Below the pieces are notes generated by a model. The model saw nothing but the letters and a program-made list of their open reading frames with translations, was not told the origin of the DNA and searched no databases. Made by a program: the position numbers and the translations under genes. From a virus (lineage: Duplodnaviria > Caudoviricetes): a stretch of 64,000 nucleotides of DNA. Shown piece by piece: positions 35,134 through 58,934 of this stretch. Every line of letters begins with the position of its first letter. Within the stretch, counting starts at the first letter, position 1. The stretch is from positions 3,428 through 67,427 of the IMG/VR virus record IMGVR_UViG_3300031998_000072; one strand, 5' to 3'.

Positions 35134-35174
35134 GCCTCCTCAAAAATTAATAAGAAAAGTACAAAATCCGTATT

Positions 35175-44715: not shown

Positions 44716-45111
44716 TTATGCTTCCGTATTAAACGGTGCTTCTTCAGCTACTTCTTCAGTAGTTTCCTCTGTTACTTCATCAGAGCTCTTGCTTCTGAAA
44801 TAGTCAACACCCTTCTTGACACCCCAAGCCGCAGCAGCACCAAGCGGACCTCCGACCGCAAGGCCGAGTCCAAAAGTCTTTGGATTGTTCTCAACAGCGT
44901 TGATACCCTTTCCAACATACTTAAATGGACCCCACCAATTAAGTCTCTTTTCCTGCTTTTCTGCTTTCTTTGCAGCTCTATCGATCTCAATAGCCTTGAC
45001 CTTTTCGTCAGCCTTCTTGACCTCTTCGATCGCAACGTTTGCCTCAACTTCCTGCTTTTTTGTGTTAGCCATAATGCTACACCTCCTTAATATTTTAAGC
45101 TTTTCAGCCAT
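44716..45111 (-). CDS. membrane protein (likely start at MANTK, 45072)
   Basis: RBS AGGAGG before MANTK; TM FGLGLAVGGPLGAAAAWGV. Confidence 0.65.
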   Translation of the reverse strand: MAEKLKILRRCSIMANTKKQEVEANVAIEEVKKADEKVKAIEIDRAAKKAEKQEKRLNWWGPFKYVGKGINAVENNPKTFGLGLAVGGPLGAAAAWGVKKGVDYFRSKSSDEVTEETTEEVAEEAPFNTEA

Positions 45112-45135
45112 TATACGTTAATATTTTTTTGCGAA
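45110..45135 (-). promoter_or_regulatory. TTCGCA-N14-TATAAT promoter
   Basis: Exact consensus, upstream of the RBS. Confidence 0.75.
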
Positions 45136-45137
45136 TA

Positions 45138-45932
45138 TCAGTTAATTTTCGCATGCGGACATTTACTAAACATTACATAAACCATTACAATTCCTTCATC
45201 ATTAGGACCTCTTTCGAGACATTCCTGTGTAGAATACTCAATTTTGCCATCATGATAATACTGCCAGCCAATATCCCAACCAATTTCAGCTATAGGAATA
45301 TTAACATTAGGTATCATTTCATGGAACATATTCATTGAACAGTAATCCTGGTCTAACATTAGGTTATTTGCTTCTAAAAGACCCTTTTCGAAGTCAATAA
45401 GACGACAATCATACTCAATTCCAGTGTCTACTTCCTTAAAATGGAGAATATCACCGAGATGATCCCTAATATATTTAGGCTTTTCACCCTCTTCAAGAGC
45501 TGGTCTACGATCAATTATCTTCTGAATTTTCTTCTGCTCTTCGGGATCTTGAGGCAAATACTTGATAGTTTCCTGTCTATAATCATCAAATACAGCTCTT
45601 GTTGTGTCTAACTGCTCTTTTGCAATTATCAACGCTGCTGAAAGAGCTGCTGCACGCTTAGCTGAGATGACATTTGATGCTACGATTGATGTACAAGTGC
45701 CTAAACCGACAACTCCAGCCCAGATATACTCAGGCCATACAAGTTTAATAATGTCTTTTGTTGTCAGATTCTCATCTTCATGTTCTCTAAGAATATCAAC
45801 AGCATTCTTAGTAGCAATTGATGAGCATACGGCTGTACCTGCAACTCCTACAACACCTAGGATGCCAAATATCAAGTTGGCATGCTTATTGAAGAATGAC
45901 TTTCCGGCTGCTATTATTCCATTATTCAACAT
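45138..45932 (-). CDS. DUF6353-like membrane protein (paralog)
   Basis: Two Gly-rich TMs; SMNMFHEMI...GWDIGW. Confidence 0.65.
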   Translation of the reverse strand: MLNNGIIAAGKSFFNKHANLIFGILGVVGVAGTAVCSSIATKNAVDILREHEDENLTTKDIIKLVWPEYIWAGVVGLGTCTSIVASNVISAKRAAALSAALIIAKEQLDTTRAVFDDYRQETIKYLPQDPEEQKKIQKIIDRRPALEEGEKPKYIRDHLGDILHFKEVDTGIEYDCRLIDFEKGLLEANNLMLDQDYCSMNMFHEMIPNVNIPIAEIGWDIGWQYYHDGKIEYSTQECLERGPNDEGIVMVYVMFSKCPHAKIN

Positions 45933-46218
45933 CCTTTACCTCCTTAGGATCTGTAGGAAAGAGGTCCATGACATCTTCCAAATATCCAGCTACCTCAGGA
46001 TACATTTTATTGTAGGTAAGGAATGCAATACCTGATGCTCCTGCACAAGTTATGGTTGAAAGCAACTTAACCTGTCCTCTTGTAAGTCCATCAGGAAATA
46101 CATGATTAACAAGCACTGTTGCCCCCCATCCTGCCATCCAGCCAAGCAATACGGATGTACCACATGACATTACCATTGAGCCTACGCCAACAATTACTTC
46201 TTTTGTTTCTCTTTTCAT
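45922..46218 (-). CDS. membrane protein
   Basis: Two hydrophobic segments; RBS GAAAGGAG. Confidence 0.65.
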   Translation of the reverse strand: MKRETKEVIVGVGSMVMSCGTSVLLGWMAGWGATVLVNHVFPDGLTRGQVKLLSTITCAGASGIAFLTYNKMYPEVAGYLEDVMDLFPTDPKEVKDVE

Positions 46219-46264
46219 GTTGTCGCTCCTTTCAAAAAATAAAATAAGAACTGTTACGTTCTCT

Positions 46265-46290
46265 ATTATACCCTATGTTTTGTTTGCGAA
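46265..46290 (-). promoter_or_regulatory. TTCGCA-N14-TATAAT promoter
   Basis: Exact consensus. Confidence 0.75.
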
Positions 46291-46291
46291 A

Positions 46292-46543
46292 TTATTCTTC
46301 ACCTTTAGTCGCTCCTGGATCTTCACCTTTAGTCGCTCCTGGATCTTCACCATCATCATATAAAATTATAAACGCCTGATCGCTGCATCCTGGACAAGCA
46401 TATCCCTTCGTTTCTATAACATTTATAACTTTGCAGTGCCACTGTTTCTGTATTATATCAAGACGCTGTTCTAATACATGAGCTACTGGTTCATAACTTA
46501 ATATCTGTTCCGCTACAATAGTTTTTATCATATTTACCCCCAA
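46292..46543 (-). CDS. hypothetical protein
   Basis: ORF ending in a duplicated EDPGATKG. Confidence 0.6.
   Translation of the reverse strand: MGVNMIKTIVAEQILSYEPVAHVLEQRLDIIQKQWHCKVINVIETKGYACPGCSDQAFIILYDDGEDPGATKGEDPGATKGEE
46296..46351. repeat. 24-bp tandem duplication (2.3 copies)
   Basis: TCTTCACCTTTAGTCGCTCCTGGA x2 plus TCTTCACC. Confidence 0.9.
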
Positions 46544-46890
46544 TAAATGATCTTATGATACTCATTATTGTAAACATCATTAAAATTTTCCCAATAATCA
46601 GACATCTTGTACTCCGGTTGAGTGGCGTAGTTAATATGTGCATCTTTAAAATCATAGTTATTAATATCAGCCTGATAGAGATCAATAAATTCCCTAAACT
46701 CTTCAGCAGTAAAAACTATTTCTGGATAACAACAAGTAAATGCTATCTCCGGATCGTTATCATACTCTTTTAACTTATCATGATCCACCAACCATTTAAT
46801 TGACTTAAGATTATCCAATTTAACATAGCCGTAAAACTTACCAAATTCCCAATTGTCTTCTCTGCAACAAATTGTAGGTCTATATCCCAT
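46534..46890 (-). CDS. hypothetical protein
   Basis: RBS GAGGTG; FYGTKLYGY-like motif FGKFYGYV. Confidence 0.65.
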   Translation of the reverse strand: MGYRPTICCREDNWEFGKFYGYVKLDNLKSIKWLVDHDKLKEYDNDPEIAFTCCYPEIVFTAEEFREFIDLYQADINNYDFKDAHINYATQPEYKMSDYWENFNDVYNNEYHKIIYWG

Positions 46891-46901
46891 AAAATATCAC
46901 C

Positions 46902-47279
46902 TCAATATCTTTTTTCTTCATCCTTTTCGCCACCCTCTCTGTGCTTATTAAATATTTCTACTGCATACTTAAACGGTCTTGATTTAGGATCGCTAGGTGA
47001 CCATTTACTAGTGTAATCTTTATCACTAAACTGAGTTTCGAGGCGCTCTTCATAATGTTTATCACGAAGCATAATAACAATCGCACCATTGTCAGAAAAC
47101 TTTTCAGTAGAAAAATACTCAACAGTGTCCATAAGATGATCAAATACCTCTTCCCAATTATCAAGCATTTCTTGCCGTTCACCATTACCGATTAAAACAT
47201 TCTGATCATAAGCATTTGTTACATATACTTCAAATTTCTGAAAATATTGAGCTGTATTTAAAATATCCCATAAAGTCAT
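46902..47279 (-). CDS. hypothetical protein
   Basis: In-operon ORF. Confidence 0.65.
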   Translation of the reverse strand: MTLWDILNTAQYFQKFEVYVTNAYDQNVLIGNGERQEMLDNWEEVFDHLMDTVEYFSTEKFSDNGAIVIMLRDKHYEERLETQFSDKDYTSKWSPSDPKSRPFKYAVEIFNKHREGGEKDEEKRY

Positions 47280-47434
47280 TCTGTATCACCTCGCATATTT
47301 TCATCGTACCATTCAAGCATAGTCGGTAATTTATACATCGGCGTATCTGCACTGATACTTTTAATGTAATTTGTATATTCACGCTCAAGTTTATAGTATC
47401 TCTTAAATAGTATTATCAATTCTCTGTCAGTCAT
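47276..47434 (-). CDS. small hypothetical protein (52 aa, not in ORF track)
   Basis: MTDRELIILF...; ATGA overlap with the downstream gene. Confidence 0.55.
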   Translation of the reverse strand: MTDRELIILFKRYYKLEREYTNYIKSISADTPMYKLPTMLEWYDENMRGDTE

Positions 47435-47777
47435 TGTCCGTACCGCCTTTCATCTTTGCACCGCATTTCTCACAAAAATTCGGAAAGTCAGTAAAGGTAA
47501 TAATGATAGTGTCTGCATTATTGCTACCCTTTTCATAGGAACAAAAAGGACAACAAATTCTATGAACTCCATTATTGTCTTCTGAAGTAATTATCCACTC
47601 GCCTTGCTTTGGCTCAACTGCCGGGGCAGTATCGATAATATCTAATACTTCTTCCGTAGGAATAGTTTTTCTGCCCTTGCTATACGGGTGATAGTATTTC
47701 TCTCTGACAAAAAACTGTTCTATCGCCTCTTTCATATACTTACGGCTGATTAAATCGTTGTTCATTCCGCACCTCAC
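47427..47777 (-). CDS. Zn-ribbon small protein
   Basis: GEWI...CPFC...CEKCGAKM. Confidence 0.65.
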   Translation of the reverse strand: MRCGMNNDLISRKYMKEAIEQFFVREKYYHPYSKGRKTIPTEEVLDIIDTAPAVEPKQGEWIITSEDNNGVHRICCPFCSYEKGSNNADTIIITFTDFPNFCEKCGAKMKGGTDND

Positions 47778-48100
47778 TCAATCGTCAAAATATCATCAGG
47801 CTTAATCTTAGGTGTTGGAAGAATCGTCCAATACTTTACTCCATGAACCTTAAACAATTTAGGATAAGCACTGGTTTCCTGAACCATATAAAATCCTGCA
47901 TCCTTGATTGTAAAGTTATGTTCCTTATCGTACTTATCAACCAATTCTAACTTAGCGCCTTCTTCATACCAACGAGCAATCTGCAAATGCCAATCCGACT
48001 CCCTTGCACAGTCCATACAGACTATGCAAGTGTCGTTCTCATTAGGCTTAGGTGCGAGAATATCATCTACAGCATTCCACTGAAATGTATATGACTCCAT
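47774..48100 (-). CDS. hypothetical protein
   Basis: Coupled ORF; ends VKYW..LP.PK, reminiscent of DUF551. Confidence 0.6.
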   Translation of the reverse strand: MESYTFQWNAVDDILAPKPNENDTCIVCMDCARESDWHLQIARWYEEGAKLELVDKYDKEHNFTIKDAGFYMVQETSAYPKLFKVHGVKYWTILPTPKIKPDDILTIE

Positions 48101-49401
48101 TACCTCGCCTCCCTAGTTCTGATTGTATAAGAGTCTGCCTTGCCAAACGGATGCTCAAACTTCTTATGAATATCAATGGTCATTCCATCGACAGTGATGA
48201 AAATGTTATCCGTCTTAGAATCCTTCATCTTCTCAAGGACAATATTAAGCAGAGCGAAAGTGTCAAAGTTCTTAGGATTCGATGCTATTCTTCTACTCTC
48301 TGCAACTGACTTAAGACCCTCATTTTCATCTTTAAGATTGGCATTCTCATCTCTAAGACGAGAATTATAGGCCTCAAGATCAAGCTTCTGTTTAAGAAGT
48401 TCATCATATCTATCAGCCTGCTCCTGAGCTGTCTTAAGAAGTTCATCATATTTAGCACTAAGTTTATCGCACTCTTCTTTAGATTCCTTATAGACATCAT
48501 ATGACTTTTTTGAAATTATCATCTTATCTACATTTGGCTTCTCTTCAGAATTATCAACGATATACTTCTTGCCAGCCTTTTCAATAGCTTCCTTAACCTT
48601 TCTAAGCTTAACAACGCCAAAGGTACGGATCTTAAGAAGCTCTTTATCTGTCTTCTCTACAAACTGTCCAACAGTCTGAATTCTGGCTCTATAAAGCGGA
48701 TTCGTTAATCTTGCATCGTCAATAATATCAACGAGAAGTGTGCTAAACCAATCTTCTGAATAATTCTTTCCAAGCATAATAAGTGATGTCTTTTCTTCCA
48801 TAGTTTTCCCCTTCGCTTCTTCAATATCTTTATTACCCCAAGCCCAATATATGCCGTTCATCTGGAATGGGTTATCTGATCTATCATAGCCAAATACTAT
48901 TGCTGCTTTTTCTCTAGTTTCTTTATCTGGAAAATATCTCTGTGTCTTATCATCTCTAATAATATCAAGATATGTCCAGTACATTGCAAGATACCTGCAC
49001 GCATCATATGTAGCCTGTCCATGAGGAAGCCGTGTATTATAGTCGCATCTAGCTTCATGAATAGCCTGCTCTGTCATAGATTTGAATTTCCTAAGACAAT
49101 CATATGACACATTAATGTTTTTCTTGTATTCTACAGCTCCATGCCATACAACACTGTCTTTTACAAGCTTGCTCCAAATATCATACGAGATCTGCATGCA
49201 ATGCCACTTGTACAAACCACGCTGTAATGTAGTTTTTGGCACATTGTGGAAAGTATCAAACAGACCGCATCTTGCAGGAACAAACTCTTTGACATTAGTC
49301 CAACCATGTTCTTCAATGAACTTCTTTCTTACTTCCAAATACTTTACATAAACGTCGTGCTCGGCTACCAAATTGTTAGTTGCAAATCTACTTACTGCCA
49401 T
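48100..49401 (-). CDS. protein with RNA polymerase alpha-CTD-like domain and coiled coil
   Basis: DDARLTNPLYRARIQTVGQFVEKTDKELLKIRTFGVVKLRKVKEAIEKAG parallels the alpha-CTD consensus (L...I.T..DL.....EL.K..N.G.KSL.EI). Confidence 0.65.
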   Translation of the reverse strand: MAVSRFATNNLVAEHDVYVKYLEVRKKFIEEHGWTNVKEFVPARCGLFDTFHNVPKTTLQRGLYKWHCMQISYDIWSKLVKDSVVWHGAVEYKKNINVSYDCLRKFKSMTEQAIHEARCDYNTRLPHGQATYDACRYLAMYWTYLDIIRDDKTQRYFPDKETREKAAIVFGYDRSDNPFQMNGIYWAWGNKDIEEAKGKTMEEKTSLIMLGKNYSEDWFSTLLVDIIDDARLTNPLYRARIQTVGQFVEKTDKELLKIRTFGVVKLRKVKEAIEKAGKKYIVDNSEEKPNVDKMIISKKSYDVYKESKEECDKLSAKYDELLKTAQEQADRYDELLKQKLDLEAYNSRLRDENANLKDENEGLKSVAESRRIASNPKNFDTFALLNIVLEKMKDSKTDNIFITVDGMTIDIHKKFEHPFGKADSYTIRTREAR

Positions 49402-49426
49402 AATTTGACTCCTTTTTAAATATCAA

Positions 49427-49690
49427 TTATTTAACTACTTCAAACGGATCTTCTTCAAGAATTACTTTTACCTGGTCTTCTGAAACCTGAAGAGCATCAG
49501 CAATCTCTTTTGCTGTCTTACCATCCATTTCCATCTTTCCAAGAATCCTTCCCTTCTGAAGAGATGTGTGAATGAAATAAGACATAAGCATTGTCTGCTC
49601 CTCATTGAGTGTTCCCATGATTGTTTGGACACTCCATGCTTTCTTCAGCTGCTCTTCAGCTTTCTTTGTTTCGTTCTTAATATCATCCAT
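49427..49690 (-). CDS. small HTH-like protein
   Basis: GKTAKEIADALQVSEDQVKVIL. Confidence 0.6.
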   Translation of the reverse strand: MDDIKNETKKAEEQLKKAWSVQTIMGTLNEEQTMLMSYFIHTSLQKGRILGKMEMDGKTAKEIADALQVSEDQVKVILEEDPFEVVK

Positions 49691-49692
49691 TT

Positions 49693-49896
49693 TTATTTCT
49701 CCTTTATCATATCATAAATATACTCAAAAGCATATGAAAGATTAAGAATCGTTTCAGAAACTTTTAAATCTTCTTCATAAGTATTACAATTATTTGCTAT
49801 TGTGTCCAATTCAACCTTAATAGTATCAAGAATATCGCCAAGTCTTTCAGCTGCTTTCTTATTTACATCATCCATTTTTCTTTTCCTCCATATCAT
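49693..49896 (-). CDS. hypothetical protein
   Basis: In-operon ORF (likely start MDDVN). Confidence 0.55.
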   Translation of the reverse strand: MIWRKRKMDDVNKKAAERLGDILDTIKVELDTIANNCNTYEEDLKVSETILNLSYAFEYIYDMIKEK

Positions 49897-50074
49897 ATTC
49901 CCAAGGATTTCCTATCTTACACTCAGTAATTACAGATGCTGATTCATCTCGACCTGGATACACAACAGGCTTTGAAAATGGACAATCAAAACATGATTCA
50001 AACTGATCACAAAATCCTTGTACTAATTTGACTGCTTCTTTTGCACTATTAAAATTTATTTTAATATCAGCCAT
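49868..50074 (-). CDS. hypothetical Cys-containing protein
   Basis: FC...C.DCPF motif. Confidence 0.55.
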   Translation of the reverse strand: MADIKINFNSAKEAVKLVQGFCDQFESCFDCPFSKPVVYPGRDESASVITECKIGNPWEYDMEEKKNG

Positions 50075-50303
50075 TATTCTTTTCCTCCATCAAATCCTTA
50101 TTTTCAACACGCCAAGCACATCTATAACACAGCTGTTTGCAAATACCATTCTGTAATGCTTCTCCACACATCATATATTTAATTTTGTCAGATGTGTCTT
50201 CGCTTTTTGGCTCAACGTCTCTTTCCATAGATAAAGAAGCAATCCAACTTACCATCACTATAGTTGCACAAATTATTGCACAAATTATCACCGATTCACT
50301 CAC
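50067..50303 (-). CDS. membrane protein with Cys motif
   Basis: N-terminal TM; C...C...C..CAW. Confidence 0.6.
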   Translation of the reverse strand: MSESVIICAIICATIVMVSWIASLSMERDVEPKSEDTSDKIKYMMCGEALQNGICKQLCYRCAWRVENKDLMEEKNNG

Positions 50304-50752
50304 TTCTTTCCCTCCTTATCAGCGGACTCGAACCAAGTCTTAAATGCCTTTCTACAATCAGGGCACATATCAACATATTCACCACCGCCCATTTTTATAA
50401 ATATATCATGGGTCTTCTTGTCTTCAATAAATTCTTTAGAATAATTTTTCTCTTCTCCTGGGAAGTATGGTTCGTCATGCTTAAATACACACTGAATGTC
50501 ATTCTTCTCGAACTTCTTCTCATAAAGCTTACCACATCTGTCACACTTCTTTGCTTCCATTTTGTTTGTCTCCTTTTTAATATCATTTAAATTAATTTTG
50601 TAGGTGTAGTCATAATAAGGGTTAAATGTTCCCCTCATTTGCATCATATCGATTTCATTCCTAATATAATCAGTAAAATTATCCGTACCGATATAAAAAC
50701 TAGGCGGTCTAATACAATTACTGTCTATTGTAAAATACGGCATAAATATCAC
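50300..50752 (-). CDS. hypothetical Zn-binding protein
   Basis: KCDRCGK...DMCPDC. Confidence 0.65.
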   Translation of the reverse strand: MIFMPYFTIDSNCIRPPSFYIGTDNFTDYIRNEIDMMQMRGTFNPYYDYTYKINLNDIKKETNKMEAKKCDRCGKLYEKKFEKNDIQCVFKHDEPYFPGEEKNYSKEFIEDKKTHDIFIKMGGGEYVDMCPDCRKAFKTWFESADKEGKK

Positions 50753-50976
50753 CTCTCCATTTTAGCACCGCAATCTGGACAATATGTAAATCCATAAGAG
50801 AAGCGAATATGGTATATTACTTTACAATTACTGCACTGAAGATCTCTTAAATGCCAATCTCTTCCACCATCATCAGTAGTTGCATCGGAAATATCAATCC
50901 ATTTCGCTTTTAGCCTTGTCTTACTTACTTTTACCTTTTTGACTTTTACTTTGTCACACCATGGCTTTTGTTTCAT
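50749..50976 (-). CDS. Zn-ribbon small protein
   Basis: KWI...CSNC...YCPDCGAKM. Confidence 0.65.
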   Translation of the reverse strand: MKQKPWCDKVKVKKVKVSKTRLKAKWIDISDATTDDGGRDWHLRDLQCSNCKVIYHIRFSYGFTYCPDCGAKMER

Positions 50977-50981
50977 AAATA

Positions 50982-51320
50982 TCAGTCCTCCCTAACTTCA
51001 TGCGCTTCAATTAATATTGAAAATTCTTCTTTTACTCCTTTGGAAATATCATCATCTACGAATGCTGTGATGTAAGCAATTCCTTCATCTTCGTTATCGA
51101 AAAGATCGTCTTCAGACAAGTATTTGCCTTCTTTTACATCTGCACATACAACTTTTTTGTTTTTGCTATCTTTTAAGAAAGCATGAATATCATCAATAAC
51201 ATACTTATTAGCATATTCAACTGCTAAATCTTTGTCATTACATACATGAGCTATACGAGTATATGCTTCGTTTAATTCGACATTTTTATAAATTGCAATT
51301 ACTAAATACACTTTTTTCAT
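50982..51320 (-). CDS. hypothetical protein
   Basis: In-operon ORF. Confidence 0.6.
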   Translation of the reverse strand: MKKVYLVIAIYKNVELNEAYTRIAHVCNDKDLAVEYANKYVIDDIHAFLKDSKNKKVVCADVKEGKYLSEDDLFDNEDEGIAYITAFVDDDISKGVKEEFSILIEAHEVRED

Positions 51321-51610
51321 TTTGGCATATTCTCCATAATTTCATCAATAACATCTGTAAGTTTTTCGAACATTTCATCTGGCGAAATATCATCCTTATA
51401 ATCAGTTCCTTTATATAAATCTAGCATATACATCTGAGGATCATCGCCATAATGTTTAACAACTATTCTTATACCTTCACCTTTGTTCGGCGGAGTATCC
51501 ATTAAGAATAATCTGTTTCTGAATTCCCATTCGTCTGTGTCTTCATTGTAAATATCATACTTATCCGAAAACCAAGTAAATAAGTCTTTCATTCTAGCCA
51601 TTATTATCAC
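51317..51610 (-). CDS. hypothetical protein
   Basis: In-operon ORF with RBS GAGGTG. Confidence 0.6.
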   Translation of the reverse strand: MIIMARMKDLFTWFSDKYDIYNEDTDEWEFRNRLFLMDTPPNKGEGIRIVVKHYGDDPQMYMLDLYKGTDYKDDISPDEMFEKLTDVIDEIMENMPK

Positions 51611-51613
51611 CTC

Positions 51614-52592: not shown

Positions 52593-52787
52593 TTATTCCT
52601 CCTTGCTTTGAATATCAATCTTATTATCCATAATGTCTATAGCATCTTTTGCGACTTTAACTGCTTCATCATACTTTTCAAAAAGACTATTCAAATTCTT
52701 TGTTTCATCTGTTAAACAAGTAGCTTGTATTAAAAATAATAATCCACCAATAGCTTCTAATGTCTCTTTTGCTTCCTTTCCTGACAT
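52593..52787 (-). CDS. hypothetical protein
   Basis: In-operon ORF with RBS. Confidence 0.55.
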   Translation of the reverse strand: MSGKEAKETLEAIGGLLFLIQATCLTDETKNLNSLFEKYDEAVKVAKDAIDIMDNKIDIQSKEE

Positions 52788-52788
52788 A

Positions 52789-52968
52789 TTAATTCTCCTT
52801 TTTAATATCCCAATCTTTAATAGTTGTTTTAAACTTCTTAGCAGCCTGCCAATATCCGGGATGACCTATCAGCTTATTACTAGCATCCTTGTCATCCCTA
52901 GCATGAAGATAGATTGCTACACCTGCTTTTTCGCATTCAGCTCTGTAAGGGTAAAGTTTAGTTGGCAT
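52789..52968 (-). CDS. small hypothetical protein (59 aa, not in ORF track)
   Basis: RBS GGAGGT; MPTKLYPYRAECEKAG...; fills the operon gap. Confidence 0.55.
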   Translation of the reverse strand: MPTKLYPYRAECEKAGVAIYLHARDDKDASNKLIGHPGYWQAAKKFKTTIKDWDIKKEN

Positions 52969-53401
52969 TTGACACCTCCGAATCTGGTCCTTTGCTTGTG
53001 TCTACAAGTTTTGTATAATCTGTCCGCGTCCTCATTTCTAATACTATCAATCTATTATTAATTTCATTAATCTGACGCTGAATATCTTCAGTATATACAA
53101 CCTCTTCGGCATATGTAGGAGTTTTACCCCAATCATGAAAATTAATACCTGATCTTTGCATCCATTCCCAAAGAATGTTAATTCTGTTATCCTTAGGCTT
53201 ATTATTAATATCAGCCATGTAATACTTATTATCATTCTCGAGTTTTGTTATAGAATCTTTGCATGACTTTATATGATTTGTATTATTACTCTCTTTAAGA
53301 GCTAATTCACGCTGAAATCCTGCAATCCGTTTAATATCTCTTTCAAGCTTCTTAATCTTCTTTTTTAACTTCTTCTTTTTCATACAGTATCTCCCTCCCA
53401 T
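52958..53401 (-). CDS. coiled-coil hypothetical protein
   Basis: Likely start MKKKKLKK after GGGAGG. Confidence 0.55.
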   Translation of the reverse strand: MGGRYCMKKKKLKKKIKKLERDIKRIAGFQRELALKESNNTNHIKSCKDSITKLENDNKYYMADINNKPKDNRINILWEWMQRSGINFHDWGKTPTYAEEVVYTEDIQRQINEINNRLIVLEMRTRTDYTKLVDTSKGPDSEVSNAN

Positions 53402-53835
53402 CTCTGTCTTTCAAACATTTCAAAATTATTTGAACTATCGCAACCAATACAAGGAGTAACATCTGATGATAATGGACTATATCTGCAATCAGAACAAGGA
53501 TCGTTAGAAATATCATCTTTTTTAGAATAACTAAGGATAGCATCCATTTTAGCTATTTCAGAATCCCTCTTATCAATCTCAATTTCCAGCTTTTTTCTCA
53601 TCAGATTCATATCATTAAGAAGACGCTCCCGTTCATCTAATGACTTGGCATACTTAGCATTAATATCAACTAATTTATCTAAATCATATTCATGAGATTC
53701 TATAAGAAGATCATAATGTTTTTCTAAATCATTAAAATCTAATCTAAGTCTATGAATTATTAATGCAAATAGAATTATAATTCCTACTAATACGATTAAC
53801 AATGCAACAATTAATGCTCTTTCCATAAATATCAT
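53380..53835 (-). CDS. membrane-anchored coiled-coil protein with Cys motif
   Basis: N-terminal TM, coiled coil, C..C...PC..C. Confidence 0.6.
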   Translation of the reverse strand: MIFMERALIVALLIVLVGIIILFALIIHRLRLDFNDLEKHYDLLIESHEYDLDKLVDINAKYAKSLDERERLLNDMNLMRKKLEIEIDKRDSEIAKMDAILSYSKKDDISNDPCSDCRYSPLSSDVTPCIGCDSSNNFEMFERQRWEGDTV

Positions 53836-54332
53836 CCTTTCTTCTGCTTCTTCTCATATCTACCAACATACTTCTTGAAAATATCATAATAATCATAATT
53901 GTTTCCAAGAGCCTTCTTGGCAATAGCCATAGCAAGACCTTTTTCAGGATCAAACTCCTCGTTTTCAGCCTTTACTACTGTCTTAGTACCATCCTCCCAA
54001 AGAATAATAGTTGCCGGATTATTAAAGATAACATCCTTAATATCAAACTTATCGCGTTCCTTCTGATACTCGTTCCTCCAAGTAGTGAAACCTCCATAAT
54101 AATTATTCATAAACATTCTTGTTTTACCATTGCCCCTTCCGCAAATTATATAATGCGAGTCCTTAGTTTCGCCGATACTCTCAATGGCTTCTTTTACTAC
54201 GTAAGCGAAATTAGGATATGATCCATCTAGATTCACCTTAATTGTACAATCTGTTGTCAGCGGTCCACGAATCATAGAATTAGTGTTAAGTTCTGTAGTA
54301 ATACTTTCGACTTTTATTTTCATAAATATCAC
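53832..54332 (-). CDS. conserved hypothetical protein
   Basis: KDVIFNNPATIILWEDGTKTVVK...FDPEKGLAMAIAKK. Confidence 0.7.
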   Translation of the reverse strand: MIFMKIKVESITTELNTNSMIRGPLTTDCTIKVNLDGSYPNFAYVVKEAIESIGETKDSHYIICGRGNGKTRMFMNNYYGGFTTWRNEYQKERDKFDIKDVIFNNPATIILWEDGTKTVVKAENEEFDPEKGLAMAIAKKALGNNYDYYDIFKKYVGRYEKKQKKG

Positions 54333-54601
54333 CTCTCATATTCTTCAATTAATTTGCGTACGTGTTCGGTTATTCCAGGATACTTATTTTCAATACCTTT
54401 AGGGCAAAGAGTGAACCATCCATCAGAGTTTATTTCATCGGCAGCAAGAATTTGAATATCATCTGAATCTTTATGAACCCATATACTAACTTCATGTGAA
54501 AAACGAAGAATTCCATTAGATTCGCTGTAATTTAAGCCGATATAATAATTACCATTACGCTGTTTTTCAATAATAGGTTCTTTTGACATAAATATCATCA
54601 C
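54329..54601 (-). CDS. hypothetical protein
   Basis: GATATTTATG start context. Confidence 0.6.
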   Translation of the reverse strand: MMIFMSKEPIIEKQRNGNYYIGLNYSESNGILRFSHEVSIWVHKDSDDIQILAADEINSDGWFTLCPKGIENKYPGITEHVRKLIEEYER

Positions 54602-54604
54602 TCC

Positions 54605-55030
54605 TTATGCATATTTTCCAAATTTTTCTTTAGATTCTTCGCAAGATTTTAACCATTTTTTGGTTTGCTTCTCTATGTATGTATGAGCCTCTGGCTTAGT
54701 CATTCTATATTTAGACATTCTGCTCAATGCCATACCCTTTCTAAAACCAGTTGAGAACAAGCGCTTAAACCCACCGTTGTCATAATACTCAACATTATCC
54801 GTTCTAGATGACGGTATTTTCAAATATAATACTTCATAAGTCATATCAGAATATGCTATCCATATTTTTCTCGTACCACCACCTGCTGGATCATCTGCTA
54901 AGATCCTAACAACGTAAGGATCTCCGATTAAAGAATAGATGCTATCTTCGTTTTCCATTGAAAATTCAACAGGTTTTTCCTGATTCTTACAATACTCTTC
55001 CCAACCAAATTCTGCCATAAATATCAGCAC
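54605..55030 (-). CDS. hypothetical protein
   Basis: GATATTTATG start context. Confidence 0.6.
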   Translation of the reverse strand: MLIFMAEFGWEEYCKNQEKPVEFSMENEDSIYSLIGDPYVVRILADDPAGGGTRKIWIAYSDMTYEVLYLKIPSSRTDNVEYYDNGGFKRLFSTGFRKGMALSRMSKYRMTKPEAHTYIEKQTKKWLKSCEESKEKFGKYA

Positions 55031-55033
55031 TCC

Positions 55034-55384
55034 TTAATATTCTATAGGATGCATCATCGCATCGTTAAATTTAATTTTATAAAATTTATCCTTAGTTCTT
55101 ATAATATCAAATGGATTTTGACTAATAAACCATCCATATTTATATGAAATATTAGATGGTTCAAATATCATTTCATCATAATCATTAAATTTTAATACAC
55201 CATTTACTAAATCAATCAATTGGCCAATACTTATAGTATCGTATCCAAATTTCAAACAATGTTCATCAAATGCATTTTTTATATCGCATGCAATCTTTTC
55301 ATCAAAACAAATATCTACAAGATCACAGCGCTTATGATACCACATGTCGTTTCTCATTTCATTATACTTTACATATTCTGCCAT
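55034..55384 (-). CDS. hypothetical protein
   Basis: RBS AAGGAG; ISYKYGW motif. Confidence 0.6.
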   Translation of the reverse strand: MAEYVKYNEMRNDMWYHKRCDLVDICFDEKIACDIKNAFDEHCLKFGYDTISIGQLIDLVNGVLKFNDYDEMIFEPSNISYKYGWFISQNPFDIIRTKDKFYKIKFNDAMMHPIEY

Positions 55385-55601
55385 ACCTTTGTCTCCTTTC
55401 TGACTTTTAATGACTTAAAATATAAAGTAGTTTGCTTATTGAAACTACCAAAGTCACCATTGTAACGCCTATGGTTACGCCGCTATGCTTATTGACAGCA
55501 GTAAGTCACATCTCTTAAGGCAGGAATGATGCCGGGAGTTGTTATGCGCTGGGCCACTCCCCATCCGGAGTTGAACCGGATTTCAGGACCACCCTAACCC
55601 G

Positions 55602-55677
55602 TGGCAGCCCAAATTGGAATCGAACCAACGTATCACAGAGTCAAAGTCTGTTGCCTTACCGCTTGGCTATTGGGCTA
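55602..55677 (-). tRNA. trnQ: tRNA-Gln (TTG)
   Basis: 76 nt: TAGCCCA/TGGGCTG acceptor, ACAGA-CTTTGAC-TCTGT anticodon arm, GGTTCGATTCC T arm, encoded CCA. Confidence 0.95.
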
Positions 55678-55705
55678 TAAAATATAAGCAAAAAGATATA
55701 GGGGA

Positions 55706-55978
55706 TTAATCCCCTGTATCCTCTAGTTCTTTCATTAGATCATCTTTCATGTTCTCATAAGTTTCCTCCAATTCTTCAAACGAGTCAAGCTCATACATCT
55801 TTTCAGCAATGTAAGCTTGAGTCTCCGGTTTAAGTATAAGCAAGACACTTGATGCCAACTTGATTGCTTTATCGAAATCATGTTCGATAAGAGCATCAAA
55901 GTAGTCACCAATACCTGCTACGTACTGTTCCTTCTCTGCCTTCATTTCCTCAATAAACTGCTCTTTTGTCATTGTCAT
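55706..55978 (-). CDS. hypothetical acidic protein
   Basis: RBS AAGGAGG; downstream of a consensus promoter. Confidence 0.65.
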   Translation of the reverse strand: MTMTKEQFIEEMKAEKEQYVAGIGDYFDALIEHDFDKAIKLASSVLLILKPETQAYIAEKMYELDSFEELEETYENMKDDLMKELEDTGD

Positions 55979-56025
55979 ACTTAGAATCCTCCTTATTTGA
56001 TTCCAAAAATTGCCTAATCGTACCT

Positions 56026-56051
56026 ACTATACTATAGAATTTATTTGCGAA
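56026..56051 (-). promoter_or_regulatory. TTCGCA-N14-TATAGT promoter
   Basis: One mismatch in the -10 element. Confidence 0.65.
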
Positions 56052-56101
56052 AGACTAATAGGCCAAGAATATCTTGACCTATTGTCCGGTTTATAAGGAG
56101 G

Positions 56102-56305
56102 TTAAGAATTTGCTTTCGATTTCTTTTTTGTCACTTTTTTATGCCTTTTATTGTTCTTCTGTTCATTTTTGATCTCCTTGTACTCATTAATGTCATGAAT
56201 TACCATGCATCCAACTAATGGTATTACCAAAAGTGGAAATGGCATTCTTCCAATAAGATATAAAACGATCAAATTAACACAAATCAATCTTACAATTCGT
56301 GACAA
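56102..56305 (-). CDS. small membrane protein
   Basis: Two hydrophobic segments and a basic tail. Confidence 0.6.
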   Translation of the reverse strand: MSRIVRLICVNLIVLYLIGRMPFPLLVIPLVGCMVIHDINEYKEIKNEQKNNKRHKKVTKKKSKANS

Positions 56306-56346
56306 TTACATCACCTCTCTTTCTTATAATTAACCTCTTATCAACC

Positions 56347-56372
56347 ATTATAAGAAGAGATTTATTTGCGAA
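56347..56372 (-). promoter_or_regulatory. TTCGCA-N14-TATAAT promoter
   Basis: Exact consensus. Confidence 0.75.
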
Positions 56373-56409
56373 AAATCAATAGGATACAATTTGTACCCTA
56401 TTGACTGGT

Positions 56410-56487
56410 TCAGTCGCCCTTTACACCTTTAATGATGTAGGCGATACCCATGATTACCATTGAAATTCCTAAAAGTACCATGAACAT
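56410..56487 (-). CDS. 25-aa membrane peptide (not in ORF track)
   Basis: GGGAGGTGAT RBS; MFMVLLGISMVIMGIAYIIKGVKGD; own promoter and hairpin. Confidence 0.6.
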   Translation of the reverse strand: MFMVLLGISMVIMGIAYIIKGVKGD

Positions 56488-56525
56488 CTTGCACATCACC
56501 TCCCATAATGTATTCAACTGATTCC

Positions 56526-56551
56526 ATTATAGGAACAAAAAAATATGCGAA
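56526..56551 (-). promoter_or_regulatory. TTCGCA-N14-TATAAT promoter
   Basis: Exact consensus. Confidence 0.75.
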
Positions 56552-56590
56552 ACAAAAAAGGAAGGCTATGTTTCCATAGCCCCTTCTTGT

Positions 56591-56929
56591 TTAAATGCCA
56601 GGCAGACGCTTGATTGCATCGGTTACAATCTTGTCTCCTGTTCCTCTGTTAGTGATTACCTCACAAGCAACCACAGATCCAGCCAGAGTTGCTACCTTCA
56701 AACTTGTAGATATCAACTCAGAAGCCCATTTTGGCAATTCAGTGTTCTTTTTATACACTTCCTTGACTGCAACGAGCTTTGAAATCTCATCTTCAGTCTG
56801 ACGTCTCAACTCAACGTCCTTGATCTCCGGCAAACTCATGGATAAAGCACTAATGTACTTATCAATTGCCAGGATTGCTTCCTTTTTTGCTCTCTTAGCC
56901 TCTAACTTAGCCTTAAACAATTCCATCAT
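56591..56929 (-). CDS. hypothetical protein
   Basis: RBS AAGGAGG; own promoter. Confidence 0.65.
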   Translation of the reverse strand: MMELFKAKLEAKRAKKEAILAIDKYISALSMSLPEIKDVELRRQTEDEISKLVAVKEVYKKNTELPKWASELISTSLKVATLAGSVVACEVITNRGTGDKIVTDAIKRLPGI

Positions 56930-56976
56930 AGTTACATGCCTCCTTTTTGATCGGGTTTAATATAGTTTCTCCGACC

Positions 56977-57002
56977 ATTATATGATTAAATTTAGTTGCG
57001 AA
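56977..57002 (-). promoter_or_regulatory. TTCGCA-N14-TATAAT promoter
   Basis: Exact consensus. Confidence 0.75.
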
Positions 57003-57004
57003 TA

Positions 57005-57262
57005 TCAAAAACAGACTTCTGATTCCATGATTGCAAAACATTCTGGACATGTTTTTGGTAATTTAATATCATTTGGTTTTCTACCATATACATTGTATTT
57101 GCATCTTGAACACGTTCCAACAAAACAATTACCATTAGATTGAATGTTTATCCATTTTGGATTATCAGTAACTTTATTATCTTTAGTATGCTTTGCAAGT
57201 TCATTAACAAAATTATTTAATATATTTAAACTTTCTGTATTTGTAAGTTCCATAAATATCAC
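57005..57262 (-). CDS. Zn-ribbon small protein
   Basis: KWI...CSRC...CPEC. Confidence 0.6.
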   Translation of the reverse strand: MIFMELTNTESLNILNNFVNELAKHTKDNKVTDNPKWINIQSNGNCFVGTCSRCKYNVYGRKPNDIKLPKTCPECFAIMESEVCF

Positions 57263-57372
57263 TCCGTTTCATTATCTCTACTTCTCCCTGCTGCTATTGC
57301 GATAGCAAATAAAAATACTCCAATAATTAATCCAAGTCCTGTTCCCGCAAAAAATGCTACTAATACATCCAT
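57259..57372 (-). CDS. 37-aa membrane peptide (not in ORF track)
   Basis: MDVLVAFFAGTGLGLIIGVFLFAIAIAAGRSRDNETE; GATATTTATG start. Confidence 0.6.
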   Translation of the reverse strand: MDVLVAFFAGTGLGLIIGVFLFAIAIAAGRSRDNETE

Positions 57373-57530
57373 AAATATCGACCCCTTTCGTGGACAAAAA
57401 CTAATAGGCTAACAATATTCCTTTCTTTTCTGTTGCCTATTAGCCGGCAGATCCTTAATGGATCTTAATGCCTTAAACAAATGGCTTATAATTCCTTAAA
57501 TTTAAACACCTTCTCTATTTCTAATCTGCC

Positions 57531-57556
57531 ATTATAAGATGGAAAATATCTGCGAA
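57531..57556 (-). promoter_or_regulatory. TTCGCA-N14-TATAAT promoter
   Basis: Exact consensus. Confidence 0.75.
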
Positions 57557-57585
57557 AGAAATATAGGGGAAAATCCCCTAATATT

Positions 57586-57756
57586 TCACTTGTAAGGATA
57601 ACACATCTTTACAGGATTTCCCTGGAAAAACGTGATCTCTTCCTTGCCCTTACGAGCCTCTTCAAGACGCTCCAGCTGCTCCTGATTACCAGTCGTAGCT
57701 ACAACGTTTTCAAACATCTCGTTGTGGACTCTTACTCTGATCTCATTGTTTTTCAT
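57586..57756 (-). CDS. 56-aa hypothetical protein (not in ORF track)
   Basis: GGGAGGT RBS; MKNNEIRVRVHNEMF... Confidence 0.6.
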   Translation of the reverse strand: MKNNEIRVRVHNEMFENVVATTGNQEQLERLEEARKGKEEITFFQGNPVKMCYPYK

Positions 57757-57792
57757 ACTAAAAACCTCCCAATAATTTTTGTTTATTCCTAC

Positions 57793-57818
57793 ATTATAAG
57801 GAGATATTTTTTTGCGAA
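57793..57818 (-). promoter_or_regulatory. TTCGCA-N14-TATAAT promoter
   Basis: Exact consensus. Confidence 0.75.
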
Positions 57819-57858
57819 AAGAATATAGGACAAGAAGTCCTATATTAGATGTAAACCG

Positions 57859-58092
57859 CTACTCTATTATCATATTAAATTGCTTAAATCCAAAAGACTC
57901 CATTCTAATTTTATAGAAGTTATATGCTCCAACATCACCATACATGGTGCAATGGAAATCATTGCACTCTATATCATTAGCTATTTCAAAAATAGTCCAT
58001 GAATTATTACAATTCTTTTGAAAAATGTAAGTTGCTAATGGTTTAGCTAATATTATTCTTTTCTTGTCCATAAATTCTTCAAATGTCAACAT
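57859..58092 (-). CDS. hypothetical protein
   Basis: RBS AAGGAGGT; own promoter. Confidence 0.6.
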   Translation of the reverse strand: MLTFEEFMDKKRIILAKPLATYIFQKNCNNSWTIFEIANDIECNDFHCTMYGDVGAYNFYKIRMESFGFKQFNMIIE

Positions 58093-58123
58093 AATATTTA
58101 CCTCCTTTTTATGTTATACACCT

Positions 58124-58149
58124 ATTATACCAAATAATTAATTTGCGAA
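58124..58149 (-). promoter_or_regulatory. TTCGCA-N14-TATAAT promoter
   Basis: Exact consensus. Confidence 0.75.
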
Positions 58150-58191
58150 AAAGAGATAGGCTGAGAATATCAACCTATCATGCACTTATTA

Positions 58192-58467
58192 TTACTTTTT
58201 CTCCTTTTTGTCTAAGTGTTTAATATACAACCATGACCCTATCATAGCCGCTGCTGTTAACCAGGAAATCCCTTGAACTATCCACACCCCAAACATCAGT
58301 TTTGGTTCAACTGATGGAAAAGTTGCAGACCGCCAGTCATAATTCCCAATCCATGCTAGCAATACTCCAGTCATACTATTAAATACAAACACACAAGCAC
58401 TAAATATAAGTATAAGTCCTGCTATGCCTTTTCTTTCTTCTATCTCTTTATTTGTCATAAATATCAC
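58192..58467 (-). CDS. two-TM membrane protein
   Basis: Two long hydrophobic helices. Confidence 0.65.
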   Translation of the reverse strand: MIFMTNKEIEERKGIAGLILIFSACVFVFNSMTGVLLAWIGNYDWRSATFPSVEPKLMFGVWIVQGISWLTAAAMIGSWLYIKHLDKKEKK

Positions 58468-58482
58468 CTCCTTATGACTTCT

Positions 58483-58508
58483 ATTATTAGCAAAAAAATA
58501 TATGCGAA
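58483..58508 (-). promoter_or_regulatory. TTCGCA-N14-AATAAT promoter
   Basis: One mismatch in the -10 element. Confidence 0.65.
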
Positions 58509-58539
58509 GAAAAAGTTGCTAAAAGGTAATAGCAGAGTA

Positions 58540-58866
58540 TTACTCTGCTATTGTATACATTGTTGATTCAAACCAGGCATTGTACCAACCATTCCAAGTA
58601 TCGTCTTCTTTGATTTTAACTGTTGTTACTATCTCACCATGCTTCTGGAGAAACTGCCTATTAGCTTCAGCAATACGTAATGCTTCAAACCTACCTTTTA
58701 CTGTAAAGGTATGCTTGACAAATACGATATTGTTTTCGCCAACTTCAATTCCAACCTTAGCTGTAGATAATACACCATTATCTTTGACGTTCTTTTTGTT
58801 GCATCCTGTTATCATCAACATTGTCATAACCATAATAACTGCCATTACCACAATAATCTTTTTCAT
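58540..58866 (-). CDS. lipoprotein
   Basis: Signal peptide with lipobox-like MITGC. Confidence 0.65.
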   Translation of the reverse strand: MKKIIVVMAVIMVMTMLMITGCNKKNVKDNGVLSTAKVGIEVGENNIVFVKHTFTVKGRFEALRIAEANRQFLQKHGEIVTTVKIKEDDTWNGWYNAWFESTMYTIAE

Positions 58867-58908
58867 TTTCTTGTCCTCCTTATTGACTTGAAAGTTTGTT
58901 TTCTTATC

Positions 58909-58934
58909 ATTATAAGGATGGAAAATTTTGCGAA
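58909..58934 (-). promoter_or_regulatory. TTCGCA-N14-TATAAT promoter (first of the early region)
   Basis: Exact consensus. Confidence 0.75.

Follow-up and report, generated by a model that had tools for sequence, protein, structure and literature searches.

A TTCGCA-N14-TATAAT promoter-like motif shared by a lineage of tailed phages, and a single-chain two-barrel RNA polymerase as its candidate reader

Twelve TTCGCA-N14-TATAAT sites in a tailed phage (Caudoviricetes) are real promoter-like signals. The motif is common to an entire phage lineage whose hosts belong to two bacterial phyla and, as a promoter class, is probably specific to that lineage. The best reading of these sequence data, and one that is held here to be somewhat probable, is that the phage's own RNA polymerase, a single-chain enzyme of the two-barrel type, uses the sites as its promoters. 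The window, i.e., the whole stretch of DNA that was analysed, comprises 64,000 nt (positions 3,428 to 67,427 of IMG/VR record IMGVR_UViG_3300031998_000072).

Results

Promoter-like sites in the window

An earlier sequence-only reading had described eleven minus-strand sites with TTCGCA and a 14-nt spacer, nine of them with a perfect TATAAT, as well as a CTCGCG variant ahead of the RNA polymerase operon, and all of these were recovered. Nine exact matches were observed where 0.01 are expected by chance, a number reached in no shuffle, and two more sites combine an exact TTCGCA with one hexamer mismatch. The sites and the leader of the last one are as follows:

58909..58934, minus strand, site 1, TTCGCA-N14-TATAAT; 42 nt before a 108-aa ORF (58540-58866), the first unit past the late/lysis block
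58483..58508, minus strand, site 2, TTCGCA-N14-AATAAT; upstream hairpin, ORF 24 nt on
58124..58149, minus strand, site 3, exact motif; adjoins a terminator-like hairpin (58155-58179)
57793..57818, minus strand, site 4, exact motif
57531..57556, minus strand, site 5, exact motif; heads a candidate non-coding RNA (57395-57530)
56977..57002, minus strand, site 6, exact motif
56526..56551, minus strand, site 7, exact motif; upstream terminator-like hairpin (56562-56583)
56347..56372, minus strand, site 8, exact motif
56026..56051, minus strand, site 9, TTCGCA-N14-TATAGT
46265..46290, minus strand, site 10, exact motif; before the DUF6353/replication block, identical site in relative L009
45110..45135, minus strand, site 11, exact motif; identical site in relatives L009 and G001
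35190..35215, minus strand, site 12, CTCGCG-N14-TATAAT; overlaps the 3' end of the helicase ORF, candidate promoter of the operon of a 100-aa ORF, a Cas4-like exonuclease and the RNA polymerase
35125..35189, minus strand, site 12 leader; hairpin then T run, candidate attenuator

The TTCGCA box is identical in all eleven sites that carry it, with differing spacer sequences, and the hexamer is TATAAT in ten of the twelve sites, TATAGT in one and AATAAT in one, so that the A at position 2 is kept in every site. These two boxes are the strongly conserved parts of the lineage motif in this phage; the other parts of the consensus (see below) are not. When at least 11 of the 12 bases had to match, a 14-nt spacer was found in 12 minus-strand sites and another spacer (12 nt) in one only. 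TTCGCA on its own has 17 occurrences on the minus strand as against 6 on the plus strand, and a search of the whole 67.4-kb record gave no site beyond the window. A thirteenth candidate at 24873-24898 (ATCGCA, one mismatch) was rejected and is not counted, because of its position within coding sequence and its lack of conservation in relatives.

All eleven sites at 45-59 kb are intergenic. Start codons with an AGGAGG-type ribosome-binding site follow at 24-47 nt; otherwise a non-coding stretch or an ORF below the caller's length follows (sites ending at 57556 and 56551). A stable hairpin followed by a T run lies directly upstream of 8 of the 9 sites at 56-59 kb. The units that the sites head comprise small early-type genes, the replication block and the polymerase operon; structural genes are not among them. 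Most low-GC relatives, down to a protein identity of ~40%, have a site of the same class as site 12 at ~0.9-1 kb before the polymerase gene, and a hairpin plus T run occupies the matching place in the leaders of four relatives (L022, L033, L065 and L025).

Conservation of the motif across the phage lineage

The lineage consensus, found on the coding strand only, reads (y)TCGCR, N4, (T)TACA, N5, TATAAT, GARA. Sites of the TCGCA-N14-TATAAT type with the same 14-nt geometry number 9 in Arthrobacter phage CapnMurica, 9 in Gordonia phage Tanis and 12 in Streptomyces phage Rima, and 10-12 in each of three IMG/VR relatives (G002, G004 and G005), compared with 0-0.25 sites per shuffled genome. Co-linear variants are present in Faecalibacterium phage FP_oengus (ACGCG-N14-CTTTAT-GG, 11 sites) and Lactococcus phage P1046 (nCACA-N4-TTACA-N5-TATAGT-AGA, 10 sites). 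Between phages of the two phyla with ~40% identical proteins, the boxes and the exact spacing are kept while spacer and flanks diverge.

The 1010-aa two-barrel polymerase with its helix-turn-helix (HTH) modules is encoded by the Arthrobacter, Gordonia and Streptomyces relatives as well as by FP_oengus and P1046, and the polymerases of motif-bearing relatives share only 41-44% identity with that of this phage. IMG/VR was also scanned motif-first, i.e., with the DNA pattern TCGCA-N4-TTACA-N5-TATAAT alone; at least 106 stretches were retrieved and 49 records were tested, 35 of which encode the polymerase, including 19 of the 20 with a completeness of 90% or more. Common descent alone may explain this co-occurrence of motif and polymerase.

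Hexamer and start-site signals

The sequence-only reading took TATAAT to be a host -10 element. The A at position 2 in all twelve sites fits that premise, but it is not secure, as position 2 is non-A in several lineages: another base stands there in 50% or more of the sites of 8 of the 63 loci (CTTTAT, TTTAAT, TGTAAT, CTTAAT), and CTTTAT is present at nearly all FP_oengus sites. A non-A at this position should not be tolerated by sigma-A. Across the lineage, T3, A5 and T6 of the hexamer are kept at 86-92%, and TATAAT is the commonest hexamer (350 of 525 anchor-selected sites, a retrieval biased towards TATAAT).

The four bases 3' of the hexamer are 85-94% purine. The candidate non-coding RNA at 57395-57530 (~136 nt, predicted fold energy -35 kcal/mol, z = -3.4) has a predicted 8-bp closing helix that begins at the first base past TATAAT, and such a helix from the first post-hexamer base is predicted in three non-coding units, namely this one and two in CapnMurica. 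In these models, the position of the closing helices hints at a start adjacent to the hexamer. Assembled RNA contigs of bovine gut libraries did not provide 5' ends that could be used.

At the sites, no canonical -35 box was found at 16-18 nt and no TG extended -10; the box that is conserved, TTCGCA, stands exactly 14 nt from the hexamer. No site from 45-59 kb was among the 60 matches listed by a sigma-70 scan, and sigma-70-type promoters were not enriched.

Candidate readers encoded by the phage

Two encoded proteins were considered in particular:

31264..34296, minus strand, 1010-aa single-chain two-barrel (YonO/QDE-1-like) RNA polymerase, candidate reader; PHROG 4291, E = 8e-301
48100..49401, minus strand, 433-aa protein with an alpha-CTD-like segment; Pfam RNA_pol_A_CTD, E = 6e-7

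The polymerase has three HTH_7-like modules near residues 56-80, 139-168 and 975-1010 (C-terminal HTH_7, E = 1e-11) and a weak RdRP match. Its motifs YAQVRI..KGMA, RYPHGG.FE.P and SGADFDGD are invariant (16 homologues for SGADFDGD and the barrel motifs), and the best fold matches of its AF2 model are QDE-1 (Foldseek E = 8e-8), RDR2, polymerases of Thermus phages (P32 gp64, P74 gp62 and P23-45 gp96 were listed) and crAss-like phi14:2. Of the core genes shared by the whole lineage, no other has recognisable modules for sequence-specific DNA binding. An 87-aa HTH protein and the alpha-CTD protein are both missing from distant motif-bearing relatives; the latter, which had been put forward as the possible factor, has homologues only in the closest clade (this phage, L009 and G002) and is ruled out as a lineage-wide reader. 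Instead of the polymerase, the actual reader might be one of several conserved core proteins whose function is unknown. No AsiA or MotA homologue was found in the whole 67-kb record (PF09010 and PF09114, no match at E <= 1), and no sigma region 2 homologue is encoded in the genome.

Discussion

Interpretation of the sites

Of the two options offered by the sequence-only reading, namely, the phage RNA polymerase or a phage factor replacing host sigma region 4, the common element of a phage-encoded reader is supported, and the polymerase is favoured on account of the conservation of the motif across phyla together with a shared polymerase and the loss of the hexamer A. We infer that the polymerase would recognise the TTCGCA-N14-TATAAT sites, with its built-in HTH modules standing in for a sigma factor, and that transcription would start at the purine just past the hexamer rather than 6-8 nt downstream as for sigma-A. 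In the first round, the enzyme might be delivered with the virion, or host RNA polymerase might fire once from TATAAT. In this phage, position 2 is A throughout and ten of the twelve sites have TATAAT, the sigma-A optimum, and host holoenzyme could fire the sites. The gene for the polymerase follows these promoters and is itself headed by one, so that the enzyme would have to be there at the outset if it were the only reader. That no promoter was identified for the late genes counts against the polymerase as reader.

A more elaborate version is doubtful. In it, the enzyme would be sigma-free, its three HTH_7-like modules would read TCGCR, TTACA and the hexamer, and an invariant N-terminal tag (HYG..SGRYPWGSG) would load it into the capsid beside DUF7211-tagged proteins encoded in the terminase-portal interval; ejected with the DNA, it would start early transcripts at the hexamer-adjacent purine in phages of both Actinobacteria and Firmicutes. 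The N-terminal motif, which resembles DUF7211 tags by eye while the Pfam DUF7211 model gives no match, is the sole hint of packaging, and packaging is a guess.

Part of the evidence may be read in favour of the host enzyme. Sigma-A could use TATAAT while a conserved phage protein at TCGCR/TTACA replaces the -35 contact in the manner of T4 MotA/AsiA or of class II activation; this factor might be found among the conserved core proteins without known function, which are indeed present, or might be the polymerase protein, whose HTH part would then act as a transcription factor. The perfect TATAAT in 10 of 12 sites and its lineage-wide prevalence, the centring of the box near -30 if a sigma-type start is assumed, and the two genome announcements that take the motif as a sigma-70 -10 (Vardy, PMC9671010; Conley, PMC10868162) are in keeping with such appropriation. 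It is nevertheless considered rather unlikely: homologues of AsiA, MotA and sigma region 2 are not encoded, the factor would have to be present for the early genes at a time when nothing of the phage has been expressed, position 2 is non-A in FP_oengus and several IMG/VR lineages, and the purine run after the hexamer and the helices from +1 fit a hexamer-adjacent start. The MotA/AsiA-style appropriation that had been proposed for these sites is thus reduced to a likeness in geometry, with a different box sequence.

Host sigma-A might also act alone on strong -35-less promoters, the upstream boxes being operators at which a phage regulator shuts off the early genes, or simply carried along by cassette duplication. 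Actinobacterial promoters often have no -35 box, the -10 hexamer is perfect, and hairpins resembling intrinsic terminators, which would be expected with bacterial RNA polymerase, flank the cassettes. This explanation is decidedly unlikely given that a TG extended -10 is absent, that TTCGCA is invariant in eleven of eleven sites despite differing spacers, that boxes and spacing persist across two phyla at ~40% protein identity while spacer and flanks do not, and that several lineages have lost the A at position 2. Finally, the sites may serve both enzymes, with host sigma-A making the first transcripts, including that of the polymerase operon, and the phage polymerase then taking over through the full 30-bp signal. 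Such dual use would solve the start-up problem with no packaged enzyme, and it agrees with the retention of TATAAT in most lineages although variants are clearly tolerated, and with the fit of the polymerase-operon site to TTGGCT-N18-TATAAT (10 of 12 bases). The TTGGCT box is, however, not kept in relatives. Moreover, at every site FP_oengus-type phages lack a usable -10, and dual use therefore cannot be general. It is judged improbable.

How single-chain two-barrel polymerases such as YonO and its relatives find their promoters is a question that has stood since 2017, and this lineage provides a candidate promoter that is short and sharply defined, and with it an enzyme that has its own DNA-binding modules. 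Cultured members (Gordonia, Arthrobacter, Streptomyces and Lactococcus phages and Faecalibacterium phage FP_oengus) make the link testable at the bench. If the polymerase is the reader, the pair would be a compact orthogonal polymerase-promoter system for both Actinobacteria and Firmicutes, with natural variants (CTTTAT, TTTAAT, TGTAAT) usable for specificity studies, and the motif, at present taken for a host sigma-70 -10, would have to be reinterpreted.

Comparison with known systems

T4 middle promoters, which combine a MotA box with a sigma-70 -10 and depend on AsiA, are alike in having a box near -30, a -10-like hexamer and no -35 at 17 nt. They differ in that the MotA box, with its TGCTT core, is centred at -30 with the -10 ~12 nt downstream, whereas here TTCGCA is set off by a fixed 14-nt gap; moreover, the present phage encodes no AsiA or MotA, the sites precede the earliest genes, and the hexamer of relatives varies at a sigma-critical position. 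T7, T3 and SP6 promoters are ~23-30 bp long, co-evolve with their enzymes and set a TATA-like stretch against a purine-rich start. The signals described here are likewise long, and the Lactococcus variant CTATAGTAGA closely resembles the SP6 core, but the polymerase families are not related (Pol I-like there, two-barrel here), and our signal consists of two or three boxes separated by variable spacers. The virion polymerases of N4 and crAss-like phi14:2 (PDB 6vr4) are possible models of an injected early-gene polymerase, and phi14:2 gp66 is a two-barrel enzyme among the fold matches; the gene here, however, encodes 1010 aa and is no part of a giant virion protein, and its packaging is guessed from the N-terminal motif.

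YonO of the Bacillus prophage SPbeta belongs to the same broad class, being a DNA-dependent RNA polymerase with a single chain, two barrels and a DxDGD loop (PMC5467207). It transcribes one late operon from a promoter of undefined sequence, whereas the candidate promoters described here head early and middle genes, and the enzyme has extra HTH modules.

The same element has been seen before in Gordonia cluster DJ phages, for which genome announcements describe an intergenic repeat of 50 bp (Vardy, PMC9671010) or 43 bases (Conley, PMC10868162). It is repeated and intergenic, contains TATAAT and lies upstream of start codons in a central small-gene region, and Gordonia phage Tanis (subfamily Deejayvirinae) has nine copies with the TCGCA-N14-TATAAT core; the leader and TTACA box of the cluster DJ motif are not conserved in the present phage. 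Neither announcement connects the motif with the polymerase of the phages, with clusters other than DJ or with phages of Firmicutes.

A precedent comes from Thermus phage P23-45, for which the part of the study drawn on here (PMC10770324) describes two two-barrel polymerases (gp96, virion; gp64, non-virion), each with its own conserved promoter motif, one AT-rich and one GC-rich and of other make-up than TTCGCA-N14-TATAAT. That part of the study mentions no HTH modules in these enzymes, whereas they are present here, and the P23-45 promoters were mapped by cappable-seq and ChIP-seq, whereas our sites are predicted from sequence. In both systems the phage encodes a two-barrel polymerase, early genes are preceded by a conserved motif that would be its promoter here, and motif and enzyme co-distribute among relatives; the P23-45 study, in the same part, also argued from such co-distribution.

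Promoter-like sites and genome layout

Genes in the record lie on the minus strand throughout, and the following features, given in transcription order, frame the analysis.

61861-62331 (-), CHAP endolysin, and 59187-59591 (-), HNH endonuclease: end of the late/lysis block, first in this order
58.9 down to 55.7 kb (-), small-gene cassettes, next after the late/lysis block
55602-55676 (-), early-region gene for tRNA-Gln (UUG), after the cassettes and ahead of further small genes
After the small genes and before the polymerase (-), DUF6353 proteins, DNA primase/polymerase, annealing protein and helicase
35190-35215 (-), CTCGCG variant site preceding a 100-aa ORF, a Cas4-like exonuclease and the polymerase gene
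31264-34296 (-), polymerase, then a 700-nt non-coding gap
Downstream of the gap (-), terminase, portal, capsid and tail genes, last in this order
21920-25103 (-), DUF7211-tagged proteins of 200, 400 and 376 aa, between terminase and portal

The sequence-only reading had reported repeated TTCGCA-N14-TATAAT sites on the minus strand, and this observation is confirmed and extended. A pattern search returned nine exact sites, exclusively on the minus strand, against a chance expectation of 0.01; a one-mismatch search added 56026-56051 (hexamer TATAGT) and 58483-58508 (AATAAT), and the full 67,427-bp IMG/VR record, of which the window takes up bases 3428-67427, holds none beyond it. Among minus-strand sites with at least 11 of 12 bases matched, the spacer is 14 nt in 12 sites and 12 nt in one. 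All 11 sites of the 45-59 kb region are intergenic and lie 24-47 nt before AGGAGG-type ribosome-binding sites (RBSs) or before non-coding stretches, and eight of the nine between 56 and 59 kb stand directly behind a stable hairpin with a run of Ts, an arrangement that makes the region a series of promoter-gene-terminator cassettes. No match to 45-59 kb turned up when the phage collection was searched by megablast. The terminator hairpins before promoters form one family, with stems that start with ATAGG and end with CCTAT and with variable loops:

56056-56090 (-), family hairpin
56380-56410 (-), family hairpin
57560-57585 (-), family hairpin
57822-57845 (-), family hairpin
58155-58179 (-), family hairpin

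The CTCGCG variant claimed ahead of the polymerase operon was likewise recovered at 35190-35215. Since most low-GC relatives keep one site at that place, approximately 0.9-1 kb ahead of the polymerase gene, with a hairpin and T run in the leader behind it, the variant is a conserved member of the promoter class. Its leader (35125-35189, -) contains a hairpin and then a T run before the RBS, and a hairpin with T run occupies the matching place in four distant relatives (phage loci L022, L033, L065 and L025). The leader hairpin looks like a promoter-proximal attenuator of the polymerase operon.

Candidate non-coding RNAs and other intergenic features

Behind the promoter at 57556, a stretch of approximately 136 nt (57395-57530, -) has no ORF of at least 40 aa; two long helices are predicted for it (-35 kcal/mol, z = -3.4), a hairpin with a T run forms its end, and it is a candidate non-coding RNA, of which only one other copy was found (98% identical). 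A small membrane-peptide ORF possibly comes next, near 57371. In Arthrobacter phage CapnMurica (L049 21501-21690; record 31500-31689), two of the promoters each drive a short non-coding unit that has a tRNA-like T arm (GGTTCGAATCC, GGTTGAAATCC). ARAGORN called no tRNA on these units, and tRNA genes directly behind promoters, whose position would have pinned down the start site, were absent in the actinophage loci.

Just 3' of tRNA-Gln, 55440-55600 (-) is GC-richer and apparently structured, and has neither an ORF nor an Rfam match. The stretch 40810-41045 (-), which lies upstream of the DNA primase/polymerase gene, holds three direct TGTCCCGTTTT repeats, with two inverted copies approximately 150 nt further on; these iteron-like repeats may mark a replication origin. 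The 700-nt gap (30280-30970, -) between the polymerase operon and the late genes is very AT-rich and non-coding and contains a long-range stem as well as inverted TTAATTAAACAATAATTAA-type repeats. The genome end, a packaging site or a late promoter region may lie in it; on examination, neither a late-gene promoter nor a TTCGCA-class promoter was found there.

Distribution of the motif in the lineage

The motif recurs throughout the lineage. A relative with 94% identity has 13 sites in which the boxes are kept and the spacers altered, and in IMG/VR relatives with polymerase identities of 42-86% there are 6-11 sites with no more than one mismatch, on the coding strand only. Random shuffles gave 0-0.25 sites per genome. 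Three cultured actinophages carry a longer consensus, TCGCR, 4 nt, TTACA, 5 nt, TATA(A/G)T, GAGACC, which runs into the RBS:

Arthrobacter CapnMurica, 9 sites, just behind tail or holin genes
Gordonia Tanis, 9 sites, just behind tail or holin genes
Streptomyces Rima, 12 sites, just behind tail or holin genes

A co-linear variant without gaps, ACGCG-N14-CTTTAT-GG, occurs in the Faecalibacterium phage FP_oengus (11 sites), and Lactococcus P1046 has nCACA-N4-TTACA-N5-TATAGT-AGA (10 sites). When IMG/VR was searched by the DNA motif alone, at least 106 stretches were retrieved; the polymerase is encoded in 35 of 49 tested records, and among those with a completeness of 90% or more the figure is 19 of 20. 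This co-occurrence may reflect plain common descent.

The polymerase has already been named the signature gene of a supercluster comprising Streptomyces, Arthrobacter, Gordonia and Rhodococcus phages, Lactococcus 1706-like phages and Faecalibacterium FP_oengus, in an account from which the promoters are absent (Koert et al., bioRxiv 10.1101/842583). Announcements of the Gordonia cluster DJ phages Vardy (PMC9671010) and Conley (PMC10868162) describe an intergenic motif (50 bp in Vardy, 43 bases in Conley) that is present in five copies and contains a TATAAT labelled 'sigma-70 -10'; neither the polymerase nor any other host is connected with it there. No account of the promoter emerged from papers searched on YonO with actinophages, on the Arthrobacter clusters AM/AU, on phage 1706 and on DUF7211.

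The polymerase and its associated modules

The 1010-aa single-chain polymerase matches PHROG 4291 (E = 8e-301) and contains three HTH_7-like segments, including a C-terminal HTH_7 domain (E = 1e-11). Among 16 polymerase homologues, YAQVRI..KGMA, RYPHGG.FE.P, SGADFDGD and HSMVVID..KH are invariant. A fold search run on an AlphaFold2 model (mean pLDDT 76) gave as best matches QDE-1 (E = 8e-8) and plant RDR2, Thermus phage P32 gp64, P74 gp62 and P23-45 gp96, and the virion polymerase of crAss-like phi14:2 and bacterial beta'. MAG contigs of Erysipelotrichia, Bacilli and Saccharibacteria contain polymerase relatives at approximately 40% identity. Directly downstream lies a gene for a 90-aa protein (30977-31249, -), an adjacency kept in nearly all relatives, actinophages and Lactococcus P1046 among them; a Pfam search with it gave no match, and it may be a polymerase partner.

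The three DUF7211 proteins open with YLIHYGIxGQKWGxRR, and genes 14-16 of Gordonia Tanis start with the same tag. That the polymerase shares this tag is a lead only: a related motif, HYG..SGRYPWGSG, stands at the N-terminus of every polymerase homologue and is lineage-invariant, but the Pfam DUF7211 model does not match the polymerase N-terminus, so that a polymerase 'packaging tag' is a similarity by eye. The common motif may be a capsid-loading signal. An HTH also closes the 400-aa papain-fold glutamine-deamidase-like protein (23308-24510, -), and over 37 aa it is 70% identical to the one at the C-terminus of the polymerase (31264-31380). Because the two proteins carry the same HTH, the role of the polymerase copy may be to tether DNA and not to read promoters.

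Recognition of the sites

Recognition by host sigma-A is possible in this phage, where all hexamers are sigma-compatible, but several observations argue against sigma-A as the general reader. A -35 box at 16-18 nt is absent, and the upstream boxes and exact spacing are kept between phages of Actinobacteria and of low-GC hosts. The conservation profile of the hexamer is also unlike that of a -10 element: when sites were picked by the upstream anchor only, with a retrieval still biased to TATAAT, T3, A5 and T6 were 86-92% conserved, and position 2 was lost in whole lineages (CTTTAT in FP_oengus; TTTAAT, TGTAAT and CTTAAT in others), with a base other than A in at least 50% of sites at 8 of 63 loci despite that bias. 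The A at position 2 is the base flipped out by sigma-70-family factors, and the variants lacking it are thus expected to be very poor sigma-A promoters. No enrichment emerged from a scan for sigma-70 promoters, and the sites of 45-59 kb were absent among the matches it listed. What follows the hexamer counts against sigma-A too, namely a purine run (the four bases 3' of it are 85-94% purine) and predicted closing helices that begin at the first base after it in the 57395-57530 unit and two CapnMurica units; a start 6-8 nt downstream would lose most of such a helix. In four public bovine-gut RNA libraries (Logan contigs, small shares), contigs end 12-13 nt after two hexamers, where a run that is probably DNA ends too; such ends of assembled contigs bear on neither start sites nor expression.

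The sequence-only reading had left the choice between the phage polymerase and a phage factor replacing sigma region 4. That the reader is phage-encoded is likely; sigma appropriation like that by MotA/AsiA at T4 middle promoters is unsupported, as AsiA, MotA and sigma region 2 were all absent in family searches. Sigma region 4 gave weak matches only, to the polymerase C-terminal HTH, to its copy in the toxin-like protein of 400 aa and to an 87-aa ORF. The alpha-CTD protein (433 aa; 48100-49401, -), which had been put forward as a possible factor, is missing from distant relatives that retain the motif, as is the 87-aa HTH protein next to it; the alpha-CTD protein occurs only in the closest clade and is ruled out as a lineage-wide reader.

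The strongest candidate reader is the phage polymerase, with a probability put slightly above even, an estimate raised by the loss of A at hexamer position 2 in some lineages and by the helices beginning at +1. Among the non-structural genes common to the lineage, it alone has recognisable sequence-specific DNA-binding modules. As its gene lies downstream of promoters of this class and is headed by one, first-round transcription would need the host polymerase or a virion-delivered enzyme.

The promoter of YonO remains undefined (PMC5467207). The purine run after the lineage hexamer resembles the purine-rich start sites of T7-type promoters. Lastly, Thermus phage P23-45 sets a precedent (PMC10770324), with a conserved promoter motif for each of two two-barrel polymerases; the argument there likewise drew on the co-distribution of motifs among relatives.
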